From: Candidatus Fimadaptatus sp.
GTDB taxonomy: Bacteria > Bacillota > Clostridia > Christensenellales > Aristaeellaceae
DNA length: 64,000 nt
Reading direction: 5' to 3'
NCBI GenBank assembly: GCA_050946055.1
Contig: JBMNUB010000002.1
Location: 97,338-161,337 of the forward strand
Shown here: one piece after another, positions 6,724 through 63,775 of the stretch
Numbering within the stretch: position 1 is the first letter of the stretch
Layout: each line of letters opens with the position of its first letter
Made by a program: the position numbers and the translations under genes
The notes under the pieces: generated by a model
The model's input: the letters and a program-made list of their open reading frames with translations, nothing else
What the model was told of the DNA's origin: nothing
The model's database searches: none

Positions 6724-6741
6724 AGCGGAGATGGGCGTTTT

Positions 6742-6775
6742 GCGCCGCGTGCATGAGTGTACGCGGCGCTTTTTG
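6742..6775 (+). terminator. Rho-independent terminator
   Basis: GCGCCGCGT, a 10-nt loop, ACGCGGCGC, then TTTTTG, immediately after the phosphoesterase stop. Confidence 0.7.
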
Positions 6776-7397
6776 CGTGCGGCGGGCAGGCGGTCTCCCG
6801 CGCCTGCGCGCGCGGCGCGGGGCGTGAGTGACCTGGACAGCGGCAATGCAGTCAACTTCCGCTCCGGCGCGGCACGTGGCTACGACATCCGTAGCCACGC
6901 CAGCATACTCGCCACAGCTCCTGCGCGGCGCATGTCCGGGGAGCGTATTCAATGGCGGCGGCGCGGAAAATGTGCATGGCAATCCGAAATGGCATCATGG
7001 CAGATGCGCTGTATGGGCATGCGGCGCACTGCACATAAGCATTTATGTGCGCCGATGGGCTGCACGGCACGCGCCCGGCTGCGCTATGAGGAGCGCGCCC
7101 GGCTTGAGCTTACGGGGCGCGGCGGCATGGGCGCAGGTGAATGTGCGGCGCGCGCTGTAAGTTGGGCATATCATGCCAATATGCGGCGGCATTTCAAGAC
7201 ATATCGCGATGCAGGTAAATATTTGAATATGCGCAGGGGTGGGTTCTGTTTTTTGCGGTACATACATATTTAACAAACATTTTCCCCGTACATGGAGGCA
7301 GCAGTTTTAAGAAAATAAGAAAAAGTATGGTGGACAGTGGATTTTAGTGAAACGATGTGGTACAATAAGAACATCAAGTGGTGCAAGGGGGGATGGT

Positions 7398-7853
7398 ATG
7401 CTGTTCTTTGGCACTTACGCGCAGACTGTGGATGCTAAAGGCCGCGTTATCGTCCCCTCAGCGTTTCGCGATTCACTGGGCAAGGACTTTATGATAGGGC
7501 TTAACAGCACCGCAAACGCCATCGCTTTTTACCCACGCGAAAAGTGGAACAAGATACTGGAAGACCTGCTCACGCTGCCCTCCACCGACGAGGTGGCCAT
7601 GGATTACGTCCGCTTTATAGCCGGGAACTCGTTTTCCAACTACGAGCTGGACAGCCAGGGCCGCACTATACTGCCCGCACCGCTGAGGCAGATGCTAAGC
7701 CTTGGCAAGAACATAAGCTTCGTGGGCGTGATAGACTACTTCGAGATATGGGATACCGAGGTCTACGAGGCGCGCAGCGCGCAGGTGCGCGACAACATGA
7801 GCGACCGGCTTAAATACATAAGCTCGCTTAGGCAGTCTGCTCAGGCGAGATGA
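7398..7853 (+). CDS. mraZ: Transcriptional regulator MraZ
   Basis: Two SpoVT/AbrB-like halves (FFGTYAQTVDAKGRVIVPSAFR… and LDSQGRTILPAPLR). Internal ATG follows a GGGGGGA RBS; the track ORF starts further upstream at 7347. Confidence 0.9.
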   Translation: MLFFGTYAQTVDAKGRVIVPSAFRDSLGKDFMIGLNSTANAIAFYPREKWNKILEDLLTLPSTDEVAMDYVRFIAGNSFSNYELDSQGRTILPAPLRQMLSLGKNISFVGVIDYFEIWDTEVYEARSAQVRDNMSDRLKYISSLRQSAQAR

Positions 7854-7855
7854 CA

Positions 7856-7879
7856 TGTCTGAACGCATGCGTTCAGACA
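7856..7879. other. Perfect 24-bp palindrome immediately after the mraZ stop
   Basis: TGTCTGAACGCA/TGCGTTCAGACA with no T-run after it. Sits where rsmH would normally follow mraZ. Confidence 0.6.
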
Positions 7880-7970
7880 CCGCGGCTCAGCCCGCCGCCC
7901 CGAACGCTGCTTGCGGGAGGGAGGGACGGGCGGCTTTGCCGTGTTTATGCGGCAAAGACGGTTCTAAACG

Positions 7971-8423
7971 GTGGAAGGGGGACATAAAGACTACATGATG
8001 GCGCCCGAAAGAGAGTATGGCCAGCAGGCCTTTGAACTGCCCGGGCGGCAGCCCCCGCGCGGCCGTCCTGCGCCCGTATACAGCGAGCGCATGCGGCAAA
8101 GGCGCGAACAGGTCGCCCGCGAAGCCGAGCGCGCCCGCAGGCTCAGCGCCCTTCGCGCAAGGCGAGGCTGGATGCTGTGCGCAGTGCTGGCCGCAGGACT
8201 TATGGTGCTGTGCGGCATGCGCATATACCAGAGCGCGGTCGCCACGGCCAACGCGCGCGACATAGCCCGGCTCAAGTCTGAGATACACGAGATGACCATG
8301 GATTCGGAGACTTACGAATACCGCATAGCCGAAGCCGCTTCCGACAAGAACGTCGAGGCGGGCGCCAAGCGCCTGGGCATGGAGTATCCCTCCGACGGAC
8401 AGGTGCGCGTGATAGGCGGCTGA
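7971..8423 (+). CDS. ftsL: Cell-division protein FtsL-like (single TM plus coiled coil)
   Basis: Basic N-terminus, a TM segment (WMLCAVLAAGLMVLCGM), a coiled-coil region and a C-terminal …AKRLGMEYPSDGQVRVI motif typical of FtsL. Alternative ATG start at about 7995. Confidence 0.7.
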   Translation: MEGGHKDYMMAPEREYGQQAFELPGRQPPRGRPAPVYSERMRQRREQVAREAERARRLSALRARRGWMLCAVLAAGLMVLCGMRIYQSAVATANARDIARLKSEIHEMTMDSETYEYRIAEAASDKNVEAGAKRLGMEYPSDGQVRVIGG

Positions 8424-8470
8424 TGCACACAGGCTGACTATATCATAAGGCTTTTAGGGAGCGTGCGCGC

Positions 8471-10597
8471 TTGATCCCGACGGGCGCATTGATACGGCGA
8501 AGGATAGTGGCGCTGCTTGCAGCGATGTGCGCGCTGTTCTGCATAGCGGCAGGGCGGCTGGTGGACTTGCAGGTGTTTCAGTCCACAGACCTGCAGGCGC
8601 GCGCTCAGGGACAGTGGACGGGCAAGTCGCGCGTAAGCGCGCGCCGTGGCGACATAACCGACCGCAACGGCAATGTGCTGGCGATGAGCGCGACGGCATA
8701 CGCGGTTTCGGCCAGCCCCAGACAGGTGGCCGACCCGGAGGCGTTTGCGCGTGAACTGAGCAGCGTGCTGGATGTGGACGCGGACAAGGTGAAGCAAAAG
8801 GTGTCCGACCGCAAAAAGGGCGGCGTGACGCTCAAGCGCCAGGTATCGCGCGAGCAGGCGCAGGAACTGCTGAAGCACCGCCAGAAGCTCAGCGCTTCGG
8901 GCAACAAGGCGCTGGACGGCATGTATCTGGAGGAGGATCAGCTGCGCGTATACCCGATGGGCGAGTTCCTCTCGCAGGTGCTGGGGCTTACTACGATAGA
9001 CGGAGTGGGCCAGAGCGGGCTGGAAAAGCAGCTGGACAAATACCTGCGCGGTAAGGACGGCTTGATAGTAAACGAAGTTGACGCTAGGGGCAACGAGCTG
9101 CCCTACTCGGTGAGCGAATACACGCCGCCCGTCAATGGCGGCAGCGTGCACCTGACCGTCGATTCGGCCATACAGGGCTTTGCCGAAAGGGCCATGCGCG
9201 AGTGCATGGACGTAAACGGCGCGGTGGCCGTGCAGGCGCTGGTCATGAACGTCAATACCGGCGAGATACTGGCCATGGTGTCCAAACCGGATTACGACCC
9301 CAACGACCCGCCCCGGCACGACGTGGAGGCGCTGACCTCCATGATGCGGCTGCGGCCTATAAGCGACGTGTACGAGCCAGGGTCAACATTTAAGATACTC
9401 ACCTCGGCGGCGGCGCTGGAGACCGGCGTGACTACGCCCACCGAGGGCTTTTACTGCTCGGGCAGCGTGAGCGTGGACGGCTCAAGGATACGCTGCTGGG
9501 GCAACCCGCACGGCGCGGAGTCCATGGCGGAGGCCATACAGAACTCCTGCAACCCGGTGTTCGTGGAGCTGGGGCTGAGACTGGGTACGTCGAGACTTTA
9601 CTCGTATCTGGACGCGTTCGGCCTGGGCAAGCGCACGGGCGTGGACCTTGCGGGAGAGTCGGCGGGCATACTGATACCCAAGGACAACGTAAAGACGGTG
9701 GATCTGGCGCGCATAGCCTTCGGCCAGAGCGTAGCGGTGACGCCATTGCAGCTGATATGCGCGGTGAGCGCGGTGGCAAATGGCGGAAACCTTATGCGCC
9801 CCTACATCGTCAAAGAGATAACCGACCAGTCGGGGACAGTGCTAAAGCGCGGCGAGCCAGAGGTGGTTGCGCATCCCATAAAGGAAAGCACAAGCCTGCT
9901 AATGCGCGAGCTGCTGACCGCGGTGGTTGACAAAGGCGGCGGCAAGAACGCGCGCATAGAGGGCATAAAGGTGGCCGGCAAGACCGGCACGGCGCAGATA
10001 TATCGCGACGGAGTGATATCAAGGGACGCGCATATAGGCTCGTTCATTGGCTTTGCCCCGTCGGATGCGCCGCGCATAGCGGTGCTGGTGGTGGTGCATG
10101 AGGCATCGCTCAGGCCGGACTATGGTTCGGTCACGGCTGCGCCATACGCGCGGCAGATAATACAGGAGACACTTGCCTACATGGGCATATACCCCGAGGG
10201 CAGCGCAGGCACGCAGAGCGCCGATATGGCGGATGTGCCGGATGTATCCGGCATGCAGGCGTCTCAGGCGGCGCGCGCGCTGCGCGAGGCGGGCTTTGAG
10301 GGGATTATGGACGGCACGGGGAGCGTGGTCGTGGATCAGCTGCCCAAGCCGGGCGCACAGGCTTTGCGCGGCTCTCAGGTGATAATATACCTTGAGAATG
10401 CCGCCGGGCAGGACGCGACCGACGTGGAAGTGCCGGACGTGATGGGCATGTCGATAGCGGAGGCGGCGCGGCTGATAAGCGCCTGCGCGCTGAAGATAGA
10501 GCTTGACGGCAGCGGCATAGCCTGTGCGCAGCAGCCGCAGGCGGGTACGCGCGTGCCGGTCGGCACGGGCATAAAGGTGAGTTTTTCGCTGCCATGA
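8471..10597 (+). CDS. Class B penicillin-binding protein with two C-terminal PASTA domains (FtsI/SpoVD/PBP2B family)
   Basis: Transpeptidase motifs STFK, SCN, KTGT. Two PASTA repeats at the C-terminus. TTG start with a TAGGGAG RBS. Confidence 0.9.
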   Translation: MIPTGALIRRRIVALLAAMCALFCIAAGRLVDLQVFQSTDLQARAQGQWTGKSRVSARRGDITDRNGNVLAMSATAYAVSASPRQVADPEAFARELSSVLDVDADKVKQKVSDRKKGGVTLKRQVSREQAQELLKHRQKLSASGNKALDGMYLEEDQLRVYPMGEFLSQVLGLTTIDGVGQSGLEKQLDKYLRGKDGLIVNEVDARGNELPYSVSEYTPPVNGGSVHLTVDSAIQGFAERAMRECMDVNGAVAVQALVMNVNTGEILAMVSKPDYDPNDPPRHDVEALTSMMRLRPISDVYEPGSTFKILTSAAALETGVTTPTEGFYCSGSVSVDGSRIRCWGNPHGAESMAEAIQNSCNPVFVELGLRLGTSRLYSYLDAFGLGKRTGVDLAGESAGILIPKDNVKTVDLARIAFGQSVAVTPLQLICAVSAVANGGNLMRPYIVKEITDQSGTVLKRGEPEVVAHPIKESTSLLMRELLTAVVDKGGGKNARIEGIKVAGKTGTAQIYRDGVISRDAHIGSFIGFAPSDAPRIAVLVVVHEASLRPDYGSVTAAPYARQIIQETLAYMGIYPEGSAGTQSADMADVPDVSGMQASQAARALREAGFEGIMDGTGSVVVDQLPKPGAQALRGSQVIIYLENAAGQDATDVEVPDVMGMSIAEAARLISACALKIELDGSGIACAQQPQAGTRVPVGTGIKVSFSLP

Positions 10598-13382: not shown

Positions 13383-14738
13383 ATGAACTTTATAGGCAAA
13401 AAGATACTTGTTATAGGCATGGCGCGCAGCGGCGTGGCCGTGTCCGAGCTGCTCAGCCGCCATGGCGCGCTGGTCACGATAAACGATACCAAGAGCGCCG
13501 AGGCGCTGGGCGATGCGCTGGAATCGCTCAAGGGGCTGAACATAGAGTGGCGTCTGGGCGAGGACGCGGTAAAGCTGGTCGAGGAGGCCGACGGCGTGGT
13601 GATAAGCCCCGGCGTGCCTGTGACTGCGCCCGCGGTCAAGCGCGCGCTTGAGCTGGGCAAGCCGGTCGAGGCCGAGATAGAGGTGGCGTACAGGCTGTCG
13701 CGCGGCAGAGTTGTAGCCATAACCGGCACAAACGGCAAGACCACGACCACCACGCTCATAAGCGAGATGTTCAAAAACGCGGGCAAGATGACCTACACCG
13801 TGGGCAACATAGGCTTCCCGTTCTCGGCAATAGCCGACAAGACCCGCCCCGAAGACGTGACCGTGTGCGAGGTGTCCAGCTTCCAGCTGGAGACGATAGA
13901 CAAGTTCCGCCCGGTTATAAGCGCGGTGCTGAACATATCCGAGGATCACCTTAACCGCCACGGCACCATGGACGAATACATACGCATGAAGAAGCGTATA
14001 TTTGAGAATCAGCGCCGCGACGACGTGTGCGTGCTCAACTACGACGATCCGGCGACGCGCGCCATGGCCGAGGACATGATAGCGCAGCCGGTGTTCTTCT
14101 CGCGCCGCGAGAAGGTCGAGGGTGCGTATGTGCAGGACGGGCAGATAATGTTCGGCATAGATATGCCCCGCAGCATCTGCGGCGTGGACGAGGTGCGCAT
14201 ACCCGGCCCGCACAATCTGGAGAACGCGCTGGCGGCAGTGGCCATGGCAGTCTGCGCCGAGATACCGCTGCCCGTCATAAGGCACACCCTGCGCACATTT
14301 GCAGGCGTGGAGCACAGGATAGAGTTCGTGCGCGAGCTGCGCGGCGTGCGCTTCATAAACGACTCCAAGGGTACCAATGTGGACTCCACGCTCAAGGCCA
14401 TAGCCACGATGGATCGCCCCACGGTGATGATACTGGGCGGCTCCACCAAGCACTCCGACTATGCGCCGCTGGCCGAGGCCATGGTGGATTCGGCGCACAT
14501 AAGGGGCGCGGTGGTGATAGGCGAGACCACGCCCGAGATGCTGCCCGCGCTGGATGCGGCGGGCTTCACCAACTACCGCGTGTGCGGCGGCTTTGAGGAG
14601 GCGATAAACACCGCATGGGGCATGGCCAATGAGGGCGGCAATGTGCTGCTTTCCCCGGCGTGCGCCAGCTTTGACATGTTCGAGGACTTTGAGCAGCGCG
14701 GCGAGGTGTTCAAGCGCATAGTCAACGACCTCAAGTGA
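13383..14738 (+). CDS. murD: UDP-N-acetylmuramoylalanine--D-glutamate ligase MurD
   Basis: N-terminal Rossmann motif (ILVIGMARSG) and ITGTNGKTTTT. Confidence 0.95.
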   Translation: MNFIGKKILVIGMARSGVAVSELLSRHGALVTINDTKSAEALGDALESLKGLNIEWRLGEDAVKLVEEADGVVISPGVPVTAPAVKRALELGKPVEAEIEVAYRLSRGRVVAITGTNGKTTTTTLISEMFKNAGKMTYTVGNIGFPFSAIADKTRPEDVTVCEVSSFQLETIDKFRPVISAVLNISEDHLNRHGTMDEYIRMKKRIFENQRRDDVCVLNYDDPATRAMAEDMIAQPVFFSRREKVEGAYVQDGQIMFGIDMPRSICGVDEVRIPGPHNLENALAAVAMAVCAEIPLPVIRHTLRTFAGVEHRIEFVRELRGVRFINDSKGTNVDSTLKAIATMDRPTVMILGGSTKHSDYAPLAEAMVDSAHIRGAVVIGETTPEMLPALDAAGFTNYRVCGGFEEAINTAWGMANEGGNVLLSPACASFDMFEDFEQRGEVFKRIVNDLK

Positions 14739-14936
14739 GCATGCGCGCGGTAAGGCGGTGCGTGAAGGCTGTGGATAAAGCATGGCATAATCATATGGCA
14801 CGGCTATGCATGCGGGCGCAAAGGCGCGGGCATGCGCGTGAGCGATTTTGCTGAGATGCATGCGTCTTGCGCGGTGCGCGCCATGTTCGTGCAGGTGATG
14901 CATCACGGCTGATACTGCTGAGATTATGCGCAAGCG

Positions 14937-15195
14937 GATAGGGTTGTGTGGCCTGCCATGCCGAAATCATCATGAAGTGAGTATAACGCATGCGCTGTGC
15001 AATCAGACAGGGCTGTGTGGCATGGCATGCCGACATCACCATCAAGCGAGCATAGCGCATGCTATGCGCAATCAGACAAGACAGCATGTCATGCCATGCT
15101 GAACCTATCCTCAAGCTGTGCATAGCGCATGCAATGCGCAATAGAACAAGGCTGTGTATTGCAGCCCGACACACTTGACCGCGCATAGTGCGCAG
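14937..15195. repeat. About 70-bp degenerate tandem repeat (roughly 3.5 copies) in the murD-ftsW intergenic region
   Basis: Units beginning GCATGC(N)TGCGCAATCAGACA…CATGCCATGC…CAAG…ATAGC at about 14987, 15056 and 15126, with a partial copy upstream. Confidence 0.8.
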
Positions 15196-15250
15196 GCGCA
15201 CTCCCGATGACATTATCACGGCGGCGATGTTCCGCCCAAGGGGGAGCGCG

Positions 15251-16399
15251 ATGACCGGTCTGGGTCGGCGCATTCACGCCTCTGCGCCGCAGCCGCCGCT
15301 GGCTGTGCGCGGGCGCGTGGACAAGGGGATAGTGATAACGCTTATGCTGCTGCTGGCGCTGGGGCTTACCACGCTGTTCTCGGCCAGCTTTTACGGCGCG
15401 TCGGCGAAGGGCGGCGCGTTTGACACGGTGCTAAAACAGCTGCTGGGCGTGGGCATGGGGCTTATCGCCATGGCGGCGTTTGCCAATTTCCCATATTGGC
15501 GGCTGAGGAATCCCTATGTGGTGGGCGGCATGCTGCTTATCAGCTTTGTGCTGCTGGTACTGGTCGCCATTCCCGGTATAGGCAAGGAGGTAAACTTCTC
15601 GCGCCGCTGGCTGTACCTGGGGCCGCTCAGCATACAGCCCTCGGAGATAGCCAAGTTCGCGGTGATACTGTTCATGGCGGCGGCGCTTACCAACATAGGC
15701 AGGCGCGTGGAGCGGCTGTTTACAGGCATCATGCCGCTGATGCTTATACCGGGCGGCGCGTTTTTGCTGATACTTATGCAGCCCAACCTCTCTACCGCAG
15801 GCTCGATAGTCATAGTGTCCATAGTAATGGTGCTGGCGGCGGGCGCGAAGTGGCGGCATCTTGGCATAATGGGCGCTGCGGGCGCTGTGGTGGCGGCGTA
15901 TTACGCCTGGTCGGAGCCTTACAGGCGGGAGCGGCTGCTTTCGTTTCGCGATCCGTTTGCCAAGCTCAGCGACGAGGGCTATCAGCTCAGCCAGTCGCTG
16001 CTGGCGTTCGGCTCGGGCGGACTGTTCGGCATGGGGCTGGGCAGGGGCAGGCAGAAGTTCGGCTTCCTGCCGTATCCCGAGAGCGACTTCATATTCGCCG
16101 TGGTAGGCGAGGACATGGGGCTGATGGGCTGCTTGGCGGTGCTGATGCTGTTTCTGGCGTTCATATTCTTCGGGCTGCGCGTGGCGATAAACTGCCCGGA
16201 CAAGTTCGGCGCGCTGTTGGCCTGCGGCATAACGCTTATGATAGGCATACAGGCGTTTATGAACGTAGCGGTGGTGACGGGACTCATGCCCACGACGGGA
16301 CTTCCGCTGCCTTTCTTCAGCGCGGGCGGCACGTCGATATCGATATTCATGGGCGCTGTGGGCATACTGCTCAACATATCGCGCTATTCGGGCGCGTGA
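15251..16399 (+). CDS. ftsW: SEDS-family peptidoglycan glycosyltransferase FtsW/SpoVE
   Basis: Multi-TM SEDS pattern (LMLLLALGLTTLFSAS… to …PTTGLPLPFFSAGGTS). GGGGGAG RBS lies 5 nt before the ATG at 15251; the track ORF starts earlier at 15188. Confidence 0.85.
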   Translation: MTGLGRRIHASAPQPPLAVRGRVDKGIVITLMLLLALGLTTLFSASFYGASAKGGAFDTVLKQLLGVGMGLIAMAAFANFPYWRLRNPYVVGGMLLISFVLLVLVAIPGIGKEVNFSRRWLYLGPLSIQPSEIAKFAVILFMAAALTNIGRRVERLFTGIMPLMLIPGGAFLLILMQPNLSTAGSIVIVSIVMVLAAGAKWRHLGIMGAAGAVVAAYYAWSEPYRRERLLSFRDPFAKLSDEGYQLSQSLLAFGSGGLFGMGLGRGRQKFGFLPYPESDFIFAVVGEDMGLMGCLAVLMLFLAFIFFGLRVAINCPDKFGALLACGITLMIGIQAFMNVAVVTGLMPTTGLPLPFFSAGGTSISIFMGAVGILLNISRYSGA

Positions 16400-16559
16400 A
16401 CACACTGTGCGCGGGCCGCGTTTCGGCGTGCAGCCGGAACGCGGCGTTTGCCGGTCCTGCGCGCAAAATTTGTCGCAACGGCGCGGGATAGGGCTGAATG
16501 CGCTGGTTGGGCAGATGTGGATGTCGGGTATGAACTTGTGACGTACAGGGTGCTTGCGC

Positions 16560-16800
16560 AGCGCATCAGGAGTGATGGGGTGCGGATGATGTGTATGAAC
16601 AAGGTGCGCACTTTGCCAGCATAGCCATCAGAAGCGATGGACTGCGGACGATGTGCATGAGCAAGGCGCGCTCTGCCAGCATAGCCATCAGAAGCGATGG
16701 ACTGCGGACGATGTGCATGAGCAAGGCGCGCTCTGCCAGCATATCGCATCAAAATCGCTGAACCTGTCGCGGCGCGCGTGCGTCCAATATTCCAATGGGC
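16560..16800. repeat. 60-bp tandem repeat: two perfect copies (16621-16680 and 16681-16740) flanked by degenerate copies
   Basis: ATAGCCATCAGAAGCGATGGACTGCGGACGATGTGCATGAGCAAGGCGCGCTCTGCCAGC occurs twice in succession, with about 70%-identical copies on either side. The repeat artefact explains ORF 16384..16752(-). Confidence 0.9.
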
Positions 16801-16940
16801 GGCTTAGGCGCGCATCGGGCAGCGCCGCGCATGCCATGCATGCGCCCAAAGCCGCAGGCGATATGACCCTGCTGCACGCGAATGTGCGCTGCGGCATAAC
16901 GTAGGTCATAGGGTCATTTAGCCATGGAGGTGTACATATC

Positions 16941-18221
16941 ATGGAAGAACTCCGTATCCGGGGCGGCAGGGCGCTGAGCGGCCGCGTGCGCGTGGGCGGC
17001 GCCAAGAACGCGGTGTTGCCGGTGCTGGCAGCGTGCATAATGTGCCGGGAGAGGATAACGCTTTACGACGTGCCTTGCATACTGGACGTGGAAAACATGC
17101 TCAGGATACTGCGCACGCTGGGAGTAAAGTGCGAGCGCAAATGTCACAGCGTGGAGATAGACGCGAGCGGCGCGGACTGCTTCAGCATGCCCGAGCATCT
17201 GTCCAAGCAGCTGCGCTCGTCCATATTTATGATGGGCTCGATACTGACGCGCTTTGGCCGCGCCAACGTCACCTATCCCGGCGGCTGCGAGATAGGGCTG
17301 CGCCCGATAGATCTGCACCTCAAGGGACTGCAGGCGCTGGGCGTGGACATACGCGAGCAGCACGGCATGATATACTGCGACGGCGCACGCATGCGCGGCG
17401 GCGAAGTGCATCTGGACTTTCCCAGCGTGGGCGCGACCGAGAATGTGATGATGGCGGCGGTGATGAGCGAGGGCGAGACAAGGATACACAACGCCGCGCG
17501 CGAACCCGAGATAGTGGATTTGGCGCGCTTCATAAACGCCATGGGCGGCTGCGTGAGCGGCGCGGGCGGGCCTACGGTCACGATAAGCGGCGTAAGGCGG
17601 CTGCACGGCTGTGAGTTCACGCTCATGCCCGACAGGATAGTCGCAGGGACGCTGATGTGCGCCGCCGCGATAACGCGCGGGGATGTGCTGCTGGACAATG
17701 TGCGCGCGGGCGACCTGATGGACGTTGTGGATAAGCTGCGCGGCGCGGGCTGCGAGATAGACTGCGCGGGTGAATCCATGCGCGTGCGCGCGCACGACAT
17801 AGGCCCGCTGCGCGCCTATACACAGCCCTATCCCGGCTTTCCCACCGACATGCAGGCGCAGATGATGGCGCTTGCATGCACATCGCGCGGCACTTCCATG
17901 ATAGTGGAGAACGTGTTCGAATCGCGCTTTGCCCATGCGGCGCAGCTCAAGCGCATGGGCGCGGACATATGGCTGCACGACCGCACGGCCGTGATACGCG
18001 GCGGCGAGCTTCAGGGTGCGCGCGTGACGGCGCGCGACCTGCGCGGCGGCGCGGCGCTGGTCATAGCCGGACTTGCCGCGCGCGGCGAGACGCGGGTGGA
18101 CAACATTTGTGTGATAGACCGCGGCTACGAGCGCATCGAGGATATGCTGGGTGCGCTGGGCGCGGACATAGCGCGCGTGGAGCGCGAAGACATGGACGAT
18201 GCGCTCCACGCGCGCGCGTAA
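16941..18221 (+). CDS. murA: UDP-N-acetylglucosamine 1-carboxyvinyltransferase MurA
   Basis: EPSP-synthase fold protein with N-terminal KNAVLP and the catalytic Cys in PGGCEIGLRPIDLH. GGAGGTG RBS. Confidence 0.9.
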   Translation: MEELRIRGGRALSGRVRVGGAKNAVLPVLAACIMCRERITLYDVPCILDVENMLRILRTLGVKCERKCHSVEIDASGADCFSMPEHLSKQLRSSIFMMGSILTRFGRANVTYPGGCEIGLRPIDLHLKGLQALGVDIREQHGMIYCDGARMRGGEVHLDFPSVGATENVMMAAVMSEGETRIHNAAREPEIVDLARFINAMGGCVSGAGGPTVTISGVRRLHGCEFTLMPDRIVAGTLMCAAAITRGDVLLDNVRAGDLMDVVDKLRGAGCEIDCAGESMRVRAHDIGPLRAYTQPYPGFPTDMQAQMMALACTSRGTSMIVENVFESRFAHAAQLKRMGADIWLHDRTAVIRGGELQGARVTARDLRGGAALVIAGLAARGETRVDNICVIDRGYERIEDMLGALGADIARVEREDMDDALHARA

Positions 18222-22119: not shown

Positions 22120-22335
22120 CACCGGCATTCGGCCGGCATGATCAAGCGTCAAAGCCGCGTGACGCGCAGGCATGGCCGCAACGACTGCCGTGTGCGCAAG
22201 GTCATGTGCATGCAGGACTGCAAGCCTCAGACGCCCCTGCGGCATTCGGTCGGCATGGTCAAGCGCCGAAGCTGCCGTGCGCGCAGGCATGGCCGCAACG
22301 ACTGCCGGCATGGGCAAGCTGTGCGGACGGCTCGC
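22120..22335. repeat. About 119-bp direct repeat, two copies, in the ftsZ-pfkB intergenic region
   Basis: GGCATTCGG(C/T)CGGCATG(A/G)TCAAGCG…CGCGCAGGCATGGCCGCAACGACTGCCG is repeated with a period of about 119 bp. Confidence 0.8.
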
Positions 22336-25546: not shown

Positions 25547-25696
25547 GCGATATCCCGCCGAACAGCGATTAAAAATTGCCGCTCCCCAAGACGGGGGCGG
25601 CAATTTTTATGTTGACCAAGCCAATGGCCTGATTGCTACGGAAAAGCTCCGCGCCGCGCACAAGACAGGTTTTAAGACAAATGCGCCCTTGCAATG

Positions 25697-25935
25697 GCAA
25701 TCCCCGGCAATGGGATTGCCGCATACACGGCCATGCCGCGCTCGCCAATGCGGGGCGGCAATCCAGCTACGTTGCCACACATGGCTGCAAGCTAAACCGC
25801 TTAACGATGCGGGGGGGGCAATCCCCGGCAATGGGCTTGCCGCATACACGGCCATGCTGCGCTCGCCAATGCGGGGCGGCAATCCAGCTACGTTGCAACA
25901 AATAGCTGCAAGCTCAGCCGCTTAACGATGCGGGG
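25697..25935. repeat. About 120-bp direct repeat, two copies, with an internal hairpin
   Basis: GCAATCCCCGGCAATGGG(A/C)TTGCCGCATACACGGCCATGC…GCGGGGCGGCAATCCAGCTACGTTGC…CCGCTTAACGATGCGGGG repeats at about 25697 and 25817. The internal hairpin is GGCAATCCC/GGGATTGCC. Confidence 0.8.
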
Positions 25936-33947: not shown

Positions 33948-34262
33948 CAGGGAACCGGGAAATGCCCGGTTTCCGTAGACTGTCAAAAAACCTCGGAGAG
34001 CTCGGCGGGCCTCGCAGCCCGCCGACTTAGGTAGCGCCCAGCGACATGTGCGGTGGGCGCTCAGGATTTTTTACGCATGGAAATCTCATTTCCCGGAGTA
34101 AAAATATCTTCCTTGCAGTTTCCACGCCCGGAAATCCGCAGGATTTCAGTGGAAACTGAGTATGGGTGGCAGTGGCGGGGGAGATTCTCCACCGTCCACG
34201 CTTGTCAAAAAGACGCTTTGACAAGCTGAGGGAACCGGGAAATGCCCAGTTCCCTCAGCTTG
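33948..34262. repeat. Copy A of a roughly 300-bp hairpin-rich intergenic repeat element (candidate structured ncRNA or MITE)
   Basis: Shares a conserved core with 49525-49848 and 54470-54745 (…GGCGACATGTGCGG…TTTT.C…GGAAAT…ATTTCC…CCTTGCAGTTTCCA…GTGGAAACTG…GGGGGAG.TTCTCC…CGCTTGTCAA…GATAAGCT.AG). Flanked by terminal direct copies of the hairpin GGGAACCGGGAAATGCCC.GTT.CC. Confidence 0.85.
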
Positions 34263-36491: not shown

Positions 36492-36885
36492 ACCGTGCGC
36501 TGCGATGAACGGCGCTTGGGATATTCGCTTACATTGTGTGCGGCGCTATGCTGCATGCAATGCGCTGCTGCGGCAGACGGCGCATGCGGCGCGGAGGAGC
36601 TGCGCTGCAATGCTGGATTATGCTGTGCCGCAAATGCGCTGCGATGAACGGCGCTTGTAGTGCAGGGCACACATGCTTTGCGCCCGGCAAAGCGGCGCAT
36701 AAGCGCCTGAAAGCGCCCGTTATGGCGGCGGACGGATGGGACATTTCGTGCAGTGCGCATTTGAGCAGCTTTTAGCGGCGGCAAATGGGCGACTTCTCAC
36801 AATTTTTGCTGGAAAACGGCGCGAAACTGTGCTATAATCAAATGGTTAATGATACGCTGGTTATTTGCGCCGGAAGGGAGTAATA

Positions 36886-38558: not shown

Positions 38559-39056
38559 ATGAGCGAGCTTAGCGATAAGATCTCCTACGTAAAGGGAATG
38601 TGCGAGGGCATGGACATAAAGCCCGACACTCCCGAGCATAAGCTCATGCTGGCCATGCTGGATGCGCTTGAGGCGGTGGGCGATGAGATAAAGCTGCTGC
38701 ACAGCAAGCATGATGAGCTGGAAGAATACGTCGATATGATGGATGAGGACATCGGCGAGCTGGAGTCGGAGATGTTCGGCGGCAGCGACGATCTCGACCT
38801 CGACGATGAGGATGAGGACGACGATGACGATTGCGACGATGATTGCGATTGCGATGACGATTGCGATTGCGGTTGCCATCACGATCACGACGGATTTGAC
38901 GAAGCCATGATGGATCAGGAACTGGCCGAGCGCGACTGTCCCAACTGCGGCAAGTCCATCGGCATAACGATGCGCGCGCTGCTCAAAAAGGACGAGCCGA
39001 TAGTCTGCCCGCACTGCGGCAGCAAGTTCCGCGCTCATGAGCCGGATGACGAGTAA
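38559..39056 (+). CDS. Acidic protein with a Cys-Asp repeat tract and C-terminal zinc ribbon (hypothetical)
   Basis: DDCDDDCDCDDDCDCGCHHDHD tract followed by a CPNCGKS…CPHCGS zinc ribbon. GGAGG RBS. Lies directly downstream of efp. Confidence 0.65.
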   Translation: MSELSDKISYVKGMCEGMDIKPDTPEHKLMLAMLDALEAVGDEIKLLHSKHDELEEYVDMMDEDIGELESEMFGGSDDLDLDDEDEDDDDDCDDDCDCDDDCDCGCHHDHDGFDEAMMDQELAERDCPNCGKSIGITMRALLKKDEPIVCPHCGSKFRAHEPDDE

Positions 39057-39198
39057 TACCACTTCACCATGCAAACAAGCGCCCTCGACTGCGACATTGC
39101 GGTCGAGGGCGCTTTGCGCACAATGGGGGGATGCCCGCACGGTACAGCGCTGTGAGCGCTGCACGGTATGCGCAGCGTTGCGCTTGGCGGCGTTGTAC

Positions 39199-39338
39199 GG
39201 CCTAAGCAGCGTGGTACTTGGTCGTTGCGCGGCCTAAGCAGCGTGGTACTTGGTCGTTGCGCGGCCTAAGCAGCGTGGTACTTGGTCGTTGCACGGCCTA
39301 AGCAGCGTGGTACTTGGTCGTTGCGCGGCCTAAGCAGC
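39199..39338. repeat. 32-bp perfect tandem repeat, four full copies plus a partial one
   Basis: GGCCTAAGCAGCGTGGTACTTGGTCGTTGCGC with period 32. No spacers, so not a CRISPR array. Lies between convergent genes. Confidence 0.9.
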
Positions 39339-40850: not shown

Positions 40851-43800
40851 ATGGGCAAGCGCAGGCTGATGTCGCTGGCACTCAGCGCAGTGCTGGCGTT
40901 TGGCACTTTGCCGGTGTATTCACTGGCCGGCGAGATGCCCGAAGTGCCGCTGTCCGGCGCGGAGCAGCCCGGCACGAGCGCACAGCCCGACGTGAGCGCA
41001 CAGCCCGACGTGAGCGCACAGCCCGACGCGAGCATACAGCCCGACGCGAGCGCACAGCCCGACGCGAGCGCACAGCCCGACGCGAGCATGCAGCCCGACG
41101 CGAGCATGCAGCCCGACGCGAGCGCGCAGCCCGACGCGAGCATGCAGCCCGACGCGAGCATGCAGCCCGACGCGAGCGCGCAGCCCGACGCGAGCGCGCA
41201 GCCCGACGCGAGCGCACAGCCCACAGAAGCTGCGCCTGGCATGGGCGAGGCCGAGCAGAGCGTGATAAACGCCGACATACGCCTGCCTAACGGCTATGCC
41301 TATCAGATAATGACGCCCGAAGCGCTGACCACGGTGACGCTGCGCAACCGCGGCGATTCGCTGCCCGCAGGGTCGGTGGTGACGCTGAGCGGCACGGGGC
41401 TTGACGTGTCGCCTCAGAGCGTGACCATGGACGGCAGCCAGACCGCGTCGTTTAGCGTGGTGGCCTCGGCTGACGGCGTGTACACCGCGCGCGTATCGGT
41501 AAAGAGCGCATCGGGCGTGGAGCAGTATGCGCGCGATATACTGCTCATATGCGCCAAGGACAGCTCAAGCTTTGCCATACCCGTGATATGTTCGGATATG
41601 TCCGGCTCGGTGATAAAAAAGGTGGACTTCATACGCGCCGACGATCCCGCCACCAAGCTGGAGATAAACTCCTCGCTCATGCCTGCGGGATACAAGGCCG
41701 AGTGGAGCATATCCAACACCACCGGCGAGGGCAACGCCACCATAAAGCTTACCAGCAACGGCTCTACCGTGCGCCCGCCCATACTCTACACCAAGTCCAA
41801 CGTGGCCAATGTGGAGGCCACGGTCACGCTCAGGGTCACGCTGCCTGCGGGCGAGGTGCTGACGCGCCAGATCCCCGTAAAGTACGAGGTGCGCGCGCAG
41901 GTACCTACGGCCTTTAAGACCACGGGCGACGTGGTAGTGGCGCAACTGGGCGGCCTTGCACCTGTCGATCTGACCGCGCGCGAGTCGGGAAGCGCGCTGA
42001 CCGATGGCATGAGCGTAATGGCAGCGTTCAGCGGCGATTACGACACGCAGCTGACCACATCCACCTTCTCGCCTGAGAAGGGCTTCTCGATAGGCGCGCT
42101 CAAGCCCGGCGTGTATAAGGTCACGATAACCGCCATAAGCGATGTGGCCGGGCTGACCGACGGCACCAAGTTCACCAAGGAAGTGAACCTGATAGTCGCC
42201 GATGAAAATGGCCAGCTGCCGGACGGACTGTTCTCGCTTGAACCCGGCAGCATAGAGCAGACGCTCTATCTGGGTGCGGAGACGCTGGGCAATGTGGCCG
42301 TAAAGTACGCAAGCCCCATCGACTCGGACGCGGTGTTTACTACCGCGTGGCAGGTGCGCACATCCGACGGCAAGCCCTGCAACATAACCGCCGACACCAA
42401 GGGCGATGCGCGCGGCAACAGCGCCAGACTGTGCGTGACAGGCGAGCTGGCTGCGGGCGAATACGTGGCCACTGCTACCGTCAACTTCAAGGGTGCCATA
42501 AAGACGCTCACGCTGCCCATAAAGCTCACTGCGCTGGCCCCGCGCATATACGGCCTGCGCGAGAGCTACACCGTGCCTTACGCATACAGCGACTATGTGA
42601 TAAGTGCGCCCGGCGTTGTGCTTGAGACGGCCTCCGGCACATGGCAGGAATACACAGGCAAGGTCAAGTGGAGCTGCGAGGCGCAGGATGCCGCCGGCAA
42701 GCGCGCATTCTCGTCCGTGACCACCGACCCCAGCAGCGGCTATACCCGCATGGTTATAGCTTCGCCGCGCGTGCCGGGCAGATACAGCTTCAAGTTCACC
42801 GCCGAGCTGAGCGATGGCCGCACGGCTGAGCAGGTAGTCACACTGGGTCTGGCCGATCAGAATGGCGTAGTGCCGACTCCCGCGCCCACGCCCGATCCCA
42901 CTCAGCCCCGCAAGGGTACGGTCAATGCCACCCGCGTAAACGTGCGCGCCTCCGCCAGCACTGACGGTGAGCGTCTGGGCATGGTGCAGCGCGGCGACAG
43001 GCTGACCATAACCGACTGGAGCGGCGAGTGGTATAGCTTCACTTATAACGGCAGAAAGGCGTATATAAAGGGCGAGTACGTGACTCTGGATGCATTGGCT
43101 ACGCCTGAGCCCACCGCCACGCCCACGCCCGATGCCAAGCCCACGGATGCACCGGCCACATACGGCAAGGTCAAGCTAAACAGCGGCACGCTGCGCATGC
43201 GCGAGAGCGCGAGCGGCAGCGCCCGCGTGCTGGCCAGCATACCCAACGGCGCTGATGTCGAGATACTCGGCACTCAGGGCGAGTGGTACAAGATCAGGTA
43301 CGACGGCAAGACCGGCTACTGCGCGCGTCAGTACATAGTGGTCGAGTCCACGCCCACCGAGCGTCCCACATCCAAGCCCACCGCCACGCCCACGACTGCG
43401 CCCGGCGTGCGCAAGGGTACGGTAACGCTCAGCGATACCGGCTCCAAGCTGCGCATACGCTCTGCGGCCAGCAAGAACGCCTCCGAAGTGACGCGCGTGA
43501 GCCACGGCACCAAGGTGGAAGTGCTGGGCAGCGAGGGCGATTTCTACCGTGTGCGCATAGGCAATATCGAGGGCTATGCGGCCAAGGCGTACATTAAGCT
43601 GGACTCCTCCGAGACCGACGCGCCCACGGCGCGCCCCACGTCTTCGGTGACGCCCAAGCCCACCACGTCGTCCAAGCCCACGGCGCGCCCCACGGCGGAT
43701 GCCAAGTACGCCACGGTCATGAAGGCTGACGGCCTTGCGCTGCACGAGACCGAGCAGGGCGCGACCATACGCACCATACCCAACTATGGCGTGGTGCAGG

Positions 43801-44204: not shown

Positions 44205-44545
44205 ATCGCTAGCATGCACGAGCGGGCATAGCGCCTGTGGCATGAGTATGCATCGGCGGGCATCGTACCTGTGGCATGAGCATGCATCGGCGGACATAGC
44301 GCCTGTGACATGAGCATGCACGAGCGGGCATAGCGCCTGTGACATGAGCATGCACGAGCGGGCATAGCGCCTGTGAAATGAGTATGCATCGGCGGGCATC
44401 GTACCTGTGACATGAGCATGCATCGGTGGGCATAGCGCCTGTGGCATGAGCATGCATTGGCTGGCATAGCGCCTGTGGCATGAGCATGCGTAGGCTGGCA
44501 TAGCGCCTGTGGAATGCGCGTTCATCGGTGGGCATCGGCCACCAT
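44205..44545. repeat. 34-bp imperfect tandem repeat array, about 10 copies
   Basis: Unit CATGAG(C/T)ATGCA(T/C)(C/G)(G/A)G(C/T)GGGCAT(A/C)G(C/T)(G/A)CCTGTG(G/A) repeated head to tail. Generates the artefactual ORFs 44162..44467(-) and 44209..44535(-). Confidence 0.9.
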
Positions 44546-47265: not shown

Positions 47266-47654
47266 CCATGCACAGCGACGCGGCGGGCATTCATGCCCGC
47301 CGCGCGCGCATAGGCGGGAGCTGGAGCGGGGAGAGGCGCGGCAGGACAGGTGCAGGGTGTAGAGTGCGACTGTGTGCATGGCAAAGTGCGTGTTCATATG
47401 CATGATGCATAGTGCGACTGTGTACATGGTCTGGCGCGTGTTCATGTGCATAGCGCAGCGCATGCCGATATTCGATATGCATGGCAATGCACACACCGAT
47501 ATACGATGCGTACATATGCCGCCGCGCCAGAACCGCGCATGTCGGCAAAGCATGAACATATCTGCACAAGCATTGAGCGGCGCTTGCATTCGCCGACAAG
47601 CACAGCACGATAGCCATGATTGCAGCCGGCAGCGCTGCCCGGCGCGCACGCATG

Positions 47655-48599
47655 TCCTCTCAAACTTTGATGGCTATGATTTGGCGGATGAACCATCCAA
47701 GAAGTTTAAGGATGCGATTAGAACACCTTCTAAGACGTTGATGTTTTATAAAAAGGTGGACGGCGTATGCTGTGTGGTGACAGCCGTAGGACAGCAGAAT
47801 AAATACAAGAAAATATGGGTGGAGAGCGCATACTTTGACGATGGAACCGCTTCAAAAATTGCACAAAAAATAGAGGAAATTACGTGGAGCCGCCATCGAA
47901 TAATGCCGGCGGAAACGTCCAAAACGTCACCACTTCTTTTCCCTCTGCGAATAGTATATCCCAAGAGACTCAGCAAGTCAACGTGCCTGTTGGCAATTTA
48001 ACACAAACAGCCCCTCACATATGCCGCAACGGCAGCCCGCTGTTTGCCGGGATGGCCGAAGCAGAGCTGACGAGCGAGATTGCCCGCGAAGGCCGCATGT
48101 CGCAAGACCCCGACCCGGCGGTATCGGAGCTGGCTAAGGAGCGGCTTCAGGCGCTCAGAAGCGAGCGCGACACGAGGGCGGATGCAGGTGCAAATGATGC
48201 GCGCAGGGCGCGCAGGGATGCCGCGCGCACAGACAGGCTCGCGGAAATAGACGAGATGATAAAGTCCATTCCCGAAGCCCCTGACGGCGAGCTGAGCCGC
48301 CACCGCAACTACTGCGCCGTCAGATAGACCAGCTCACAATCGCGCAGGAGGGCGCGGACAAGGCCACGGCTAAGATGTACTCAAACGAGATACAGCGCAT
48401 GCGCGAAAGCCTTAAGGAGATAGAAAAAGATGAGCATGGCCGCGCCGATCTGCGCCGAACCGATGCTGAGCGCATGGCGCAGGAGCTGGCGGGCAATCCG
48501 GCACGCGCTGAGGTTGAGGGCGCGGCGCGCGATGTTTACATACTGGAAAAGCAGCGCATAAAGCTAAACCAGCAGACCGGGCATGAAGCGACAGCTTAA
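47655..48599 (+). pseudogene. Low-GC islet carrying one ancestral gene split across three reading frames (two -1 frameshifts); origin probably foreign
   Basis: Three consecutive ORFs (47372..48001, 47884..48327, 48375..48599) lie in frames 2, 1 and 0 in that order. The frame-0 reading is open upstream of the ORF3 ATG and spans the frame-1 stop. Composition is clearly more AT-rich than the flanks. The 5' part of track ORF 47372..48001 is GC-rich repeat, not coding. Confidence 0.55.
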
Positions 48600-48611
48600 A
48601 AGGAGTTTGCT

Positions 48612-49376
48612 ATGATGATAAGCGATGAGTTTTTGGAGAAGTATCGCGTGCTTGAGGACTTGCTCAGCGAGCGATATGCGCTGGAGCCGCGCAAGCACTC
48701 CAGCGTGGTGATAGAGTTCGCGTCCAGCCGCGAAGGTGAGCTGTTCAAGGACAGGCTGGATTTGTGCCGGGAGATACGCAACCTGCTGACACACAACGCG
48801 GCGCTGGACGGCGAGCCTGTGGTCACGCCCGCCCGCGCTACGGTCGACATGCTGGACGAGATAATCGCCTACGTGCAGCGCCCGCCGCTGGCGGCAAACT
48901 GGGCGACCAGCGCTGAGCGGCTGCTTATGACCACGCTGGAAGAACCGGCGCTCAAGCTCATGCGCATAATGGAGAGCCGCGGCTTTTCGCATGTGCCTGT
49001 GATGGAGCGCGGGCGCATAACGGGCGTGTTCAGCCAGAGCACCGTGTTTTCGTACACCTGCCGCGAGCGCGGCGCGCGCATCGACGAGCGCACGCGCGTG
49101 GGCGACATGGCGCGCTTCCTGCCGCTGGAGCGCCACTCCAGCGAGCGCTTTCTGTTCATGCCTGCGGACGTGAGCTATCTGGACGCGGCAACGGCGTTTA
49201 CGCCCGGTCAGGAGCGCACCAAGCGCGTAGCGGCAATATTCATAACCGAGACGGGCTCGCCCGACGAATCGCTTATAGGCATGCTCACGCCATGGGACAT
49301 ACTGGGCAAGGCCAAGCGGCAGATAGTCCAGCCCGAACACGGCGACACGCGCGCCGTGGTGGATGAGCAGATGTGA
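48612..49376 (+). CDS. CBS-pair domain protein with an N-terminal domain carrying a HEPN-like Rx4H motif
   Basis: Two CBS motifs (…GFSHVPVMERGRITGVFS… and …AAIFITETGSPDESLIGMLTPWDIL). N-terminal CREIRNLLTHNA contains R-x4-H. AAAGGAG RBS. Lies directly downstream of the pseudogene islet. Confidence 0.6.
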   Translation: MMISDEFLEKYRVLEDLLSERYALEPRKHSSVVIEFASSREGELFKDRLDLCREIRNLLTHNAALDGEPVVTPARATVDMLDEIIAYVQRPPLAANWATSAERLLMTTLEEPALKLMRIMESRGFSHVPVMERGRITGVFSQSTVFSYTCRERGARIDERTRVGDMARFLPLERHSSERFLFMPADVSYLDAATAFTPGQERTKRVAAIFITETGSPDESLIGMLTPWDILGKAKRQIVQPEHGDTRAVVDEQM

Positions 49377-49524
49377 ATGCGGATGAAGCAGAGCAGGGCA
49401 TGAGCATATGCACATGCGGATGAAGCAGAGCAGGGCATGAGCATATGCACATGCGGCTGACGTATATGGACAACGCGGGCATCGCAGCAGATTACATGAA
49501 GCCGCATGGCTCGCGCCTGAAAAG

Positions 49525-53185: not shown

Positions 53186-53195
53186 TATGCAGGCA

Positions 53196-53488
53196 GTGGA
53201 ACCCCGCGCCTGTGCGTCCGTCAGGTGACATCCTGACGGTCAACGCGCGCTGCGAGATATGGCGGCGCGCGTTTTAATGTGCGCGCAGGGAAGCGCACGG
53301 GTGCAAGCTCTGACCAATGCGGCATGCCCGGCTGCGGCAGAGTGGAACCCCGCGCCTGTGCGTCCGTCAGGTGACATCCTGACGGTCAACGCGCGCTGCG
53401 AGATATGGCGGCGCGCGTTTTAATGTGCGCGCAGGGAAGCGCACGGGTGCAAGCTCTGACCAATGCGGCATGCCCGGCTGCGGCAGAG
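53196..53488. repeat. Perfect tandem duplication of an about 148-bp unit downstream of yebC
   Basis: 53196-53340 and 53341-53488 are identical as read (AGTGGAACCCCGCGCCTGTGCGTCCGTCAGGTGACATCCTGACGGTC…GGCTGCGGCAGAG). Each unit has the hairpins CCGTCAGG/CCTGACGG and GCGCGC…GCGCGC. Confidence 0.9.
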
Positions 53489-54469: not shown

Positions 54470-54745
54470 TTATCGCTCCCAAGAGGGCTAGCGGCCCTCT
54501 CGACTTCAATCGCGCCCGGCGACATGTGCGGCGGGCGCGATTGATTTTGCCATGGGAAATGGAATTTGCCAGAGTTAAAATATCTGCCTTGCAGTTTCCA
54601 TGTACGTAAGCCTGCAGGATTCCGGCGAAAGCCGGCAGGTGTGGCAGCGGCGGTGGAGGTTCTCCCGCGCCATGCTTGTCAAAAGACTTTCTGATAAGCT
54701 GAGCGAGCGCCCGGATAAGCATTGCTTGTCCGGGCGCTCGCTGCT
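54470..54745. repeat. Copy C of the roughly 300-bp hairpin-rich repeat element
   Basis: Homologous core (GGCCCTCTCGACTTCAATCGCGCCCGGCGACATGTGCGG…GGGAAATGGAATTTGCC…CCTTGCAGTTTCCA…CTTGTCAAAAGACTTTCTGATAAGCTGAG). Ends in the 13-bp-stem hairpin GCGAGCGCCCGGA…TCCGGGCGCTCGC. Lies between convergent genes. Confidence 0.85.
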
Positions 54746-63623: not shown

Positions 63624-63775
63624 ATTATACAATGCTCCTTTTGGTATTGAGTCTTTCGGATAACGGCACGATGCGCGCATGTGGAAACCGGCGCTTGGAG
63701 ATGGCGCGGTGTATGGCGGTTAGGGTATGCCGAGCTTGCATGCGTTCATCATGCGGATGGGGGAGTATCACATGG

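Follow-up and report, generated by a model that had tools for sequence, protein, structure and literature searches.

Strain-variable tandem repeats in the spacers flanking ftsW in the dcw cluster of a Candidatus Fimadaptatus species

Genes of the division and cell wall (dcw) cluster are normally packed tightly together, and the question raised by this locus is why two neighbouring spacers of such a cluster should each hold more than 500 bp of DNA that is partly built of tandem repeats. The spacers lie on either side of ftsW in a 64-kb stretch of contig JBMNUB010000002.1 from the uncultured gut bacterium Candidatus Fimadaptatus sp.; this stretch was analysed as a whole and is referred to here as the window. 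An initial annotation of this DNA had taken the repeats to be recently expanded and had suggested that they could act as insulators or attenuators of transcription, or as arrays related to small RNAs or to protein binding. Having compared the spacers with those of other strains and species, we consider it fairly probable that the arrays are near-neutral, non-coding minisatellites, i.e. variable number tandem repeat (VNTR) loci, that were born in place within one Candidatus Fimadaptatus species and are co-transcribed inside the dcw cluster. Arrays of this kind are ordinary; what is unusual is how densely they occur in a bacterial chromosome and that they lie inside an essential operon.

The window has a G+C content of 60%, and searches against Pfam identify a Firmicute-type dcw cluster on its plus strand, in the order mraZ, a gene for a PASTA-containing penicillin-binding protein (PBP), murE, mraY, murD, ftsW, murA, ftsQ, ftsA and ftsZ. 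The three plus-strand genes that delimit the spacers are murD (13383-14738; UDP-N-acetylmuramoylalanine-D-glutamate ligase, with MurD-like_N, Mur_ligase_M and Mur_ligase_C matches), which lies upstream of the first spacer, ftsW (15251-16399; FTSW_RODA_SPOVE, E = 1e-101) and murA (16941-18221; UDP-N-acetylglucosamine (UDP-GlcNAc) enolpyruvyl transferase, EPSP_synthase, E = 7e-93). The ftsW product is a shape, elongation, division and sporulation (SEDS) protein of FtsW/SpoVE type, 382 residues in length, that is named by NCBI as FtsW of a Candidatus Fimadaptatus sp. metagenome-assembled genome (MAG). Three observations support 15251 as its start: there is a ribosome-binding site (RBS), GGGGGAG, 6 nt upstream; the alignment with congeners begins at residue 1; and independent assemblies contain identical 382-residue calls. 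These gene boundaries define spacers of 512 bp (14739-15250) and 541 bp (16400-16940).

Each spacer contains one array, neither of which has an assigned strand. Array 1, between murD and ftsW, was called by Tandem Repeats Finder (TRF) at 14926-15157 with a period of 69, 3.3 copies and 75% matches, close to the roughly 3.5 copies of 70 bp in a spacer of about 510 bp that had been annotated. A repeat search and unit matrix resolve it into three units of 69 or 70 bp (14927-14995, 14996-15064 and 15065-15134) with a partial one after them, and the units are 67-78% identical to one another. Array 2, between ftsW and murA, was called at 16564-16751 (period 60, 3.1 copies, 89% matches); its 60-bp units span 16546-16751 and comprise a degenerate, older copy (16546-16605), a pair of young ones (16606-16665 and 16666-16725) and a partial unit of 18 nt. 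Periodicity is perfect over 16614-16743, so that 16620-16679 equals 16680-16739, and the two fully identical adjacent copies described in the initial annotation are indeed present. Lag autocorrelation gave z = 7.3 for the first spacer and z = 4.5 for the second, and in each case none of 200 shuffles reached the observed value.

That dcw spacers are otherwise tight is borne out by 36 relatives with the same murD-ftsW-murA order and an FtsW at least 58% identical to that of the window. The murD-ftsW spacer has a median of 28 nt in these relatives (range 3-96) and the ftsW-murA spacer a median of 82 nt (range 61-302). In congeners, whose FtsW is 82-94% identical, the two spacers measure 56-90 nt and 89-162 nt, and they are short as well in a lineage with a more divergent FtsW. 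Since the relatives' spacers are short, some 370-460 bp per spacer must be a species-specific gain. In the first spacer this extra DNA amounts to about 460 bp (14739-15197, plus strand; GC 57%) and has no counterpart in congeners, whose spacers align only to the last ~53 nt. These form an ancestral ftsW leader, GCACTCCCG ... GGGGGAG RBS (15198-15250, plus strand), that is conserved in congeners and invariant among strains. In the second spacer about 370 bp is extra (16490-16856, plus strand), and the congener spacers match only the two ends. Upstream lie ancestral post-ftsW signals (16404-16476, plus strand), namely a 13-bp GC hairpin at 16415-16445 and a conserved motif, TGCGCGCAAAATTTGTCGC, at 16458-16476; downstream is an ancestral murA leader of about 85 nt, GGCGATATG ... 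GCATAACGTAGGTCA ... GCCATGGAGGTG RBS (16857-16940, plus strand), again conserved in congeners and invariant among strains. Congeners carry a hairpin of other sequence and the motif GCGCG(C)AAAA(A/T)TGTCGC at the same place after the ftsW stop, and the fold of the region in the window (-48.9 kcal/mol) has a z-score of -2.1, so that from sequence and position the hairpin and motif look like an ancestral intercistronic signal between ftsW and murA, which might be a stabiliser, a weak terminator or a regulatory site. We found no intermediate species with a single proto-unit; all non-conspecific relatives examined have short spacers.

Assemblers err at perfect repeats and short-read contigs break there, and the arrays could in principle be mis-joined or over-collapsed repeats of the window's own contig, the assembly artefact that the initial annotation had named as a concern. 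The real copy number of array 2, and of a perfect 146-bp duplication that follows yebC elsewhere in the window, could also exceed the assembled number in the window strain. An artefact is nevertheless extremely improbable. Among the contigs from other samples or relatives that were compared with the window (designated by L-numbers, such as L001, L039 and L064), those of at least seven other samples contain array 1, and contigs from other sequencing runs that encode an identical FtsW have the murD-ftsW spacer with this array. In the independent sample L003 the first spacer is base-for-base identical to that of the window, in L002 it differs by four single-nucleotide polymorphisms (SNPs) and in L001 its interior differs. 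Array 2 is spanned in contigs of another strain lineage from several samples. Where short-read contigs do break, they do so as a genuine duplication would require: three end at 16643 and two begin at 16714, which are the exact branch points predicted for a k=31 de Bruijn graph with a duplicated 60-bp unit, and contigs end in the same manner at 53224 in the 146-bp duplication. The presence of both arrays in independent assemblies from other samples thus shows that they are not artefacts, and the ends of short-read contigs at 16643, 16714 and 53224 indicate that such arrays explain the fragmentation of this species' MAGs.

Copy number was compared across strains, a check that the initial annotation had proposed. 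A second strain lineage of the same species (L064-L067) is represented by at least nine contigs from several runs, and its proteins are 98.7% (FtsW), 99.8% (MurD) and 99.1% (MurA) identical to those of the window. In this lineage the first spacer is 565 bp and array 1 is one unit of ~63 nt longer (L064-L067), whilst the second spacer is 479 bp and array 2 is short by exactly one 60-bp unit (L064-L066; 2.1 vs 3.1 units). One further sample from another run (L039) likewise lacks one 60-bp unit of array 2. The view that perfect copies reflect a recent expansion is therefore upheld, with the extra unit missing from the sister lineage and from that sample. The older unit of array 2 is homogenised towards the unit consensus in L064. 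Array 1 has flanks with 0-1 SNP among strains and an interior (~15010-15172) that is about 30% diverged and carries a 7-nt indel in L001, where one unit is a chimera of the window's units 2 and 3; L002 represents an intermediate haplotype. The ancestral signals at the edges, that is, the post-ftsW hairpin and motif and the leaders and RBSs of ftsW and murA, are untouched. Gain and loss of units, chimeras and a fast-changing interior are the marks left by slippage and by unequal exchange and conversion among units, not those of a conserved functional sequence. The arrays show true VNTR behaviour: they consist of head-to-tail units within the ~10-150 bp range of minisatellites, their copy number varies between strains and they are non-coding, which places them in the generic class of intergenic VNTRs or minisatellites. 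They are not a CRISPR array, as one unit directly follows the next, head to tail, and unique spacers are lacking.

A coding or regulatory function was sought in several ways. Pfam searches with five open reading frames (ORFs) from the spacers gave no match, and the ORF lists of both spacers contain none that link the flanking genes. Reading frames are not kept between strains, as indels of 7 nt and 2 nt break every frame, and an 83-residue spacer ORF called as a gene in other assemblies was rejected on the same grounds. On the sense strand of 14739-15250 and 16400-16940 we found no consensus sigma-70 promoter and no intrinsic terminator in the form of a GC hairpin with a U-tract, the ancestral hairpin at 16415-16445 being followed only by UUU. 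Two terminator-like matches on the minus strand of array 1 are at the rate expected by chance. With no consensus promoters or terminators in them, the arrays are most likely transcribed simply as part of the dcw mRNA. At the gathering threshold Rfam matches only two tRNAs in the window, and at a permissive threshold the spacers yield only a chance match of 24 bits to mir-460 (gathering score 52). A search for DnaA-box clusters found one perfect box, at 14770, which is at chance level, and an anti-Rho G>C skew is uninformative, since the positive skew of the spacers is the same as that of the leading strand and of coding sequences.

The arrays might still act at the RNA level, as stabiliser, processing or attenuator modules in the dcw transcript that uncouple the levels of murD, ftsW and murA and whose effect is tuned by copy number. 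Their intercistronic, 3'-proximal location, nearer the upstream stop, would suit such a role, and in Clostridium stem-loops at 3' ends inside operons set transcript stoichiometry (PMC8219983). The units of array 2 hold a small hairpin, CCATC-N6-GATGG, within a longer stem of -19 to -20 kcal/mol, and the second spacer as a whole folds more stably than its shuffled counterparts (z = -3.4). This last value, however, owes much to the ancestral hairpin at 16415-16445 and not to the array. Single units tested on both strands against dinucleotide shuffles gave z-scores from +1.4 to -1.9, with no excess folding, and the whole first spacer reached only -1.5. Every congener lacks the arrays despite having the same dcw genes in the same order, conservation within the spacer is lowest in the array interior, and no terminator consensus occurs in either spacer. 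We therefore regard RNA-level function as unlikely, and find no support for the insulators, attenuators, small RNAs or protein-binding arrays suggested in the initial annotation.

A different origin for the extra DNA would be the insertion of a small, non-autonomous mobile element, similar to MITEs (miniature inverted-repeat transposable elements) or to the mycobacterial interspersed repetitive units (MIRUs), that carried or seeded an internal minisatellite. The sites are filled in this species, by ~370-460 bp, and empty in congeners, and about half of each insert is non-repetitive. A minisatellite within a MITE has a precedent in Porphyromonas gingivalis (PMC4596501), and MIRUs sit in operon spacers and are missing at the homologous sites of related species (PMC3184786). 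Neither terminal inverted repeats (TIRs) nor target-site duplications (TSDs) were found at the insert ends, with none in the first spacer and in the second a sole candidate, a 12-nt imperfect pair at 16426/16868. Within the 64 kb, neither a blastn comparison of every spacer with every other nor nhmmer profiles built from seven arrays gave anything significant outside the array in question, hence no second copy of an insert or unit, and Smith-Waterman comparison of units with rotation recovered only short CATG-type motifs in common. By these comparisons every array in the window appears to have its own unit, and as units share no significant homology between loci, membership of a dispersed family of MIRU or repetitive extragenic palindromic (REP) type is rejected. 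The units are also absent from IMG/VR, and a phage origin was rejected. An inserted element is thus distinctly improbable. Mutagenesis of array 1 specifically at A, as by a diversity-generating retroelement (DGR), was rejected too, since strains differ by every type of substitution and parts of the alignment are not orthologous.

The data demonstrate that the arrays arose locally, that units have been gained and lost, that units have formed chimeras and been homogenised, and that the edge signals have been preserved. For near-neutral minisatellites the course of events would be as follows. Slipped-strand mispairing, together with unequal recombination or gene conversion between neighbouring units, would have duplicated a local segment and then altered its copy number, and intercistronic spacers of under 100-160 nt would in this way have grown to more than 500 nt in one species. 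Older units would decay by point mutation, down to the 67-78% identity seen in array 1, while new duplications would keep arising, of which the perfect 60-bp pair of array 2 and the two 146-bp units at 53195 would be examples. Selection may do no more than exclude arrays from leaders, RBSs and promoter regions, giving an apparent bias towards 3' ends, and the arrays themselves would be near-neutral passengers that are expected to influence mRNA stability or polarity no more than incidentally.

The two dcw arrays belong to a wider pattern, as the initial annotation had proposed for this window: all the other arrays that it listed were recovered, and two more were found, at 47351-47470 and 49363-49460. 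The window arrays, none with an assigned strand, include, between ftsZ and a gene for a pfkB kinase, a 117-bp unit repeated ~1.6 times with 87% identity (22123-22307). Two arrays lie in convergent spacers, a 121-bp unit repeated 2.0 times (25696-25935; 94%) and a 32-bp unit repeated 4.6 times (39191-39338; 96%), and a 34-bp unit is repeated 9.6 times downstream of a gene for an SH3_3 protein (44211-44535; 85%), all three being found by TRF and by periodicity. The newly found arrays are a degenerate 48/24-bp repeat downstream of a PGA_cap gene (47351-47470) and, by TRF, a 37-bp unit repeated 2.6 times at the 3' end of a CBS-domain gene (49363-49460; 91%). TRF also called the 146-bp unit repeated 2.0 times with 100% identity, which begins 10 nt after the YebC stop (53195-53488), and a 69-bp unit repeated 3.4 times with 86% identity that is cut by the window end and has the palindrome GCGCATTATGCGC in every unit (63763-64000).

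At thresholds of period >= 25 and score >= 100, the window contains eight strong arrays, compared with two in 285 kb of dcw loci from 34 relatives (0.45 per 64 kb), a density about 18 times that of the relatives; two further arrays in the window are degenerate. Strong periodicity was found in seven of the 23 window spacers of at least 260 bp, and tandem-repeat DNA makes up 3.2% of the window. We detected no cryptic periodicity outside the arrays, and the idea that every long spacer is a decayed array therefore remains a guess. Leaving aside the array at 63763-64000, seven arrays lie in co-directional spacers, two in convergent spacers and none in divergent ones, of which there are three of at least 150 bp; these three are the AT-richest spacers, with 38-48% GC. 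The arrays tend to sit closer to the upstream stop than to the downstream start. This apparent 3' bias is explained equally well by selection that keeps promoter and RBS regions clear of repeats as by the seeding of gene 3' ends that had been suggested.

Intergenic DNA accounts for 21% of the window and has a G+C content of 56%, compared with 61% in genes. Across the window and the congener contig L057, the intergenic share is 21-22% and is unusually GC-rich (54-56% vs 60-61% in genes). A long-read contig from a congener, whose YebC is 94% identical, is syntenic with the window over 20 kb; it carries a single intergenic array, not shared with the window and at another site, where the window counterpart has five. 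Several syntenic spacers are far shorter in that congener, the PGA_cap-CBS spacer (47266-48611) being 66 bp there and 1346 bp in the window. Within the 64 kb, then, a tendency to form tandem arrays is present in the genus and is far stronger in the window's species, and the dcw arrays may be a local expression of a lineage-wide tendency for long, GC-rich spacers downstream of genes to accumulate tandem repeats, each array with its own unit. In the window, the PGA_cap-CBS spacer holds, besides the degenerate array at 47351-47470, an ORF of 147 residues (47884-48327) that has no Pfam match and whose GC by codon position is atypical. Independent tandem arrays also occur in other Clostridia, either inside or close to the dcw cluster or in syntenic regions (L015:3446-3532; L037:7426-7645; L057:15458-15769); a distant relative, for instance, has a 38-bp unit repeated 2.3 times in its 302-bp ftsW-murA spacer, and a congener has a 60-bp unit repeated 5.3 times.

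The short motifs shared between units are CATG-type palindromes, and these offer a further possible role for the arrays, as DNA-level platforms of repeated binding sites (GCGCATGC / GCGCAT-N-ATGCGC, centred on CATG) for a protein that binds or modifies DNA, in which case they would serve as insulators or nucleoid anchors. The density of GCATGC is 7.4 per kb in arrays, 2.4 per kb in other intergenic DNA and 0.87 per kb in coding DNA, and the congener contig L057 has a similar intergenic excess. Array 1 contains the palindrome GCGCAT-N3-ATGCGC at 15055-15069 and 15125-15139; matches to GCGCAT-N(0-4)-ATGCGC number five in all, where 0.7 are expected, and all five fall inside the two arrays with a 69-bp period. 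The divergent unit variants of other strains still hold a CATG palindrome. Against this, the sequence and spacing of the palindrome vary among units and strains, the motif is missing from other arrays (32, 121 and 146 bp), congeners lack the arrays and no candidate binding protein was identified. Counts within arrays are moreover inflated, as the motif is copied along with the unit. We consider a binding platform very unlikely. The palindromes might promote polymerase stalling and slippage, or they might be sites of binding or modification. In intergenic DNA, GCATGC, ATGCAT and CGCATGCG palindromes reach 3-6 times their density in coding DNA, and GATC is three times rarer there.

Several points weigh against the arrays being neutral minisatellites and nothing more. 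That they are co-transcribed and without effect is something we infer from the sequence, and the promoter and terminator scans covered sigma-70-type and canonical forms, so that promoters for sporulation sigma factors and U-poor terminators would escape them. Relative to coding DNA, arrays are enriched 8.5-fold in GCATGC and 3-fold in CATG palindromes, which pure neutrality does not predict. The absence of arrays from all three divergent promoter spacers hints at a positional rule, and the non-repetitive ~200-250 bp of each insert is not accounted for by the minisatellite model. Both arrays are also kept in all sampled strains of the species, although these are too closely related for their agreement to be read as selection.

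Among known systems, the closest functional analogy to the dcw arrays is MIRU-VNTR of Mycobacterium tuberculosis, in which tandem units of 40-100 bp occupy operon spacers (Supply et al. 1997, summarised in PMC3184786). The two resemble each other in unit size, in their location in spacers between genes of one operon, in their absence from the homologous site of a relative and in a strain-variable copy number that can be used for typing. Two defining features of MIRUs fail here, however: MIRUs are one dispersed family at about 40-50 loci, whereas each window array has its own unit, and their small ORFs overlap the ends of the flanking genes, whereas the window arrays have no such ORFs. The phylum is also a different one. 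Repetitive extragenic palindromic sequences and bacterial interspersed mosaic elements (REP/BIME) of Enterobacteriaceae and Pseudomonas are stable stem-loops of 21-65 bp, forming one family with hundreds of copies, and are known to stabilise upstream mRNA. They too are extragenic, often intercistronic or 3'-proximal, palindromic and at times clustered in tandem, but the window units are unique to each locus and show no significant folding, and so differ from REP/BIME in both respects. The P. gingivalis example likewise involves an intergenic minisatellite of variable copy number in a host-associated bacterium, but there the array belongs to a multicopy element with TIRs, whereas here we found no TIR, TSD or second copy (PMC4596501). 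The conserved post-ftsW hairpin at 16415-16445 fits the type of stem-loop seen in Clostridium operons with selective RNA processing and stabilisation (PMC8219983); that hairpin is ancestral and single-copy, however, and the tandem arrays themselves are not stable stem-loops.

The closest phenomenological analogy, by comparison of repeat properties, is with the tandem repeats that pervade the extrachromosomal elements called Borgs (Schoelmerich et al. 2023, PMC9879509). In both cases there are many independent arrays, each with a unique unit, which evolve fast, vary in unit number within a population and are absent from close relatives. Arrays occur both between and within ORFs, with units divisible by three in the latter (in the window, an 18-nt repeat at 40965-41222), partial units flank arrays (as in array 2) and arrays break or collapse assemblies. 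Borg repeats differ in being mostly perfect, with at least three identical units, and strongly A-rich, whereas most window arrays are imperfect (75-96%) and GC-rich, with an A content of 14-32% that shows no consistent bias and no A enrichment beyond the strand average. The window arrays have longer units (32-146 bp), their host is not an archaeal extrachromosomal element but a bacterial chromosome, and tandem repeats make up 3.2% of the window as against 0.62% of Borg genomes, the latter by a stricter criterion. A bolder proposal, which we rate as rather improbable, is that a repeat-generating process like that inferred for Borgs acts on this gut Christensenellales chromosome, building CATG-palindrome-rich arrays of unique units downstream of genes even in the essential dcw operon, and that the arrays are used as binding platforms, as modules of transcript boundary or stability, or as contingency loci that tune the dosage of cell-wall and division genes. 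With 21% of the window intergenic and 3.2% of it tandem repeat, the lineage would be a bacterial counterpart of the Borg repeat phenomenon.

As minisatellites, the arrays are ready-made VNTR markers for tracking strains in gut metagenomes, and with 100%-identical pairs beside 67%-identical units the lineage would offer a natural system for the birth and decay of minisatellites in prokaryotes. They also indicate that more than 900 bp of fast-evolving filler can be accommodated in an essential and usually compact operon, as long as the signals at the edges are preserved.

Some further features of the window were observed. Upstream in the dcw cluster, mraZ (7347-7853) is followed by an ORF of 150 residues without a Pfam match and then by the PASTA-containing PBP gene (8471-10597, plus strand; Pfam); rsmH (mraW) does not lie between mraZ and the PBP gene (window 7347-8470), which differs from the usual dcw order, and the 623 bp upstream of mraZ (6724-7346) have no called gene. 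In-frame repeats occur within two genes: the 18-nt unit at 40965-41222 is repeated 14.3 times near the N-terminus of a protein of 1093 residues with five SH3_3 domains, and repeats of 6/18 nt lie in a zinc-ribbon protein of 165 residues (38801-38885). An element of ~170 nt is found twice on the plus strand with ~80% identity (34010-34175 and 54490-54660). A terminator-like GC hairpin with a T-run is part of it, as are another hairpin (GGAAAT..ATTTCC) and the conserved sequence TAAAAATATCTnCCTTGCAGTTTCCA. Rfam gives no match at the gathering score, and the element could be either a gene for a small RNA or a dispersed element of intergenic DNA. Finally, an exact 23-nt direct repeat, TGCGCTGCGATGAACGGCGCTTG, is present at 36496-36518 and 36635-36657, 139 nt apart, in the 373-bp spacer at 36492-36864.

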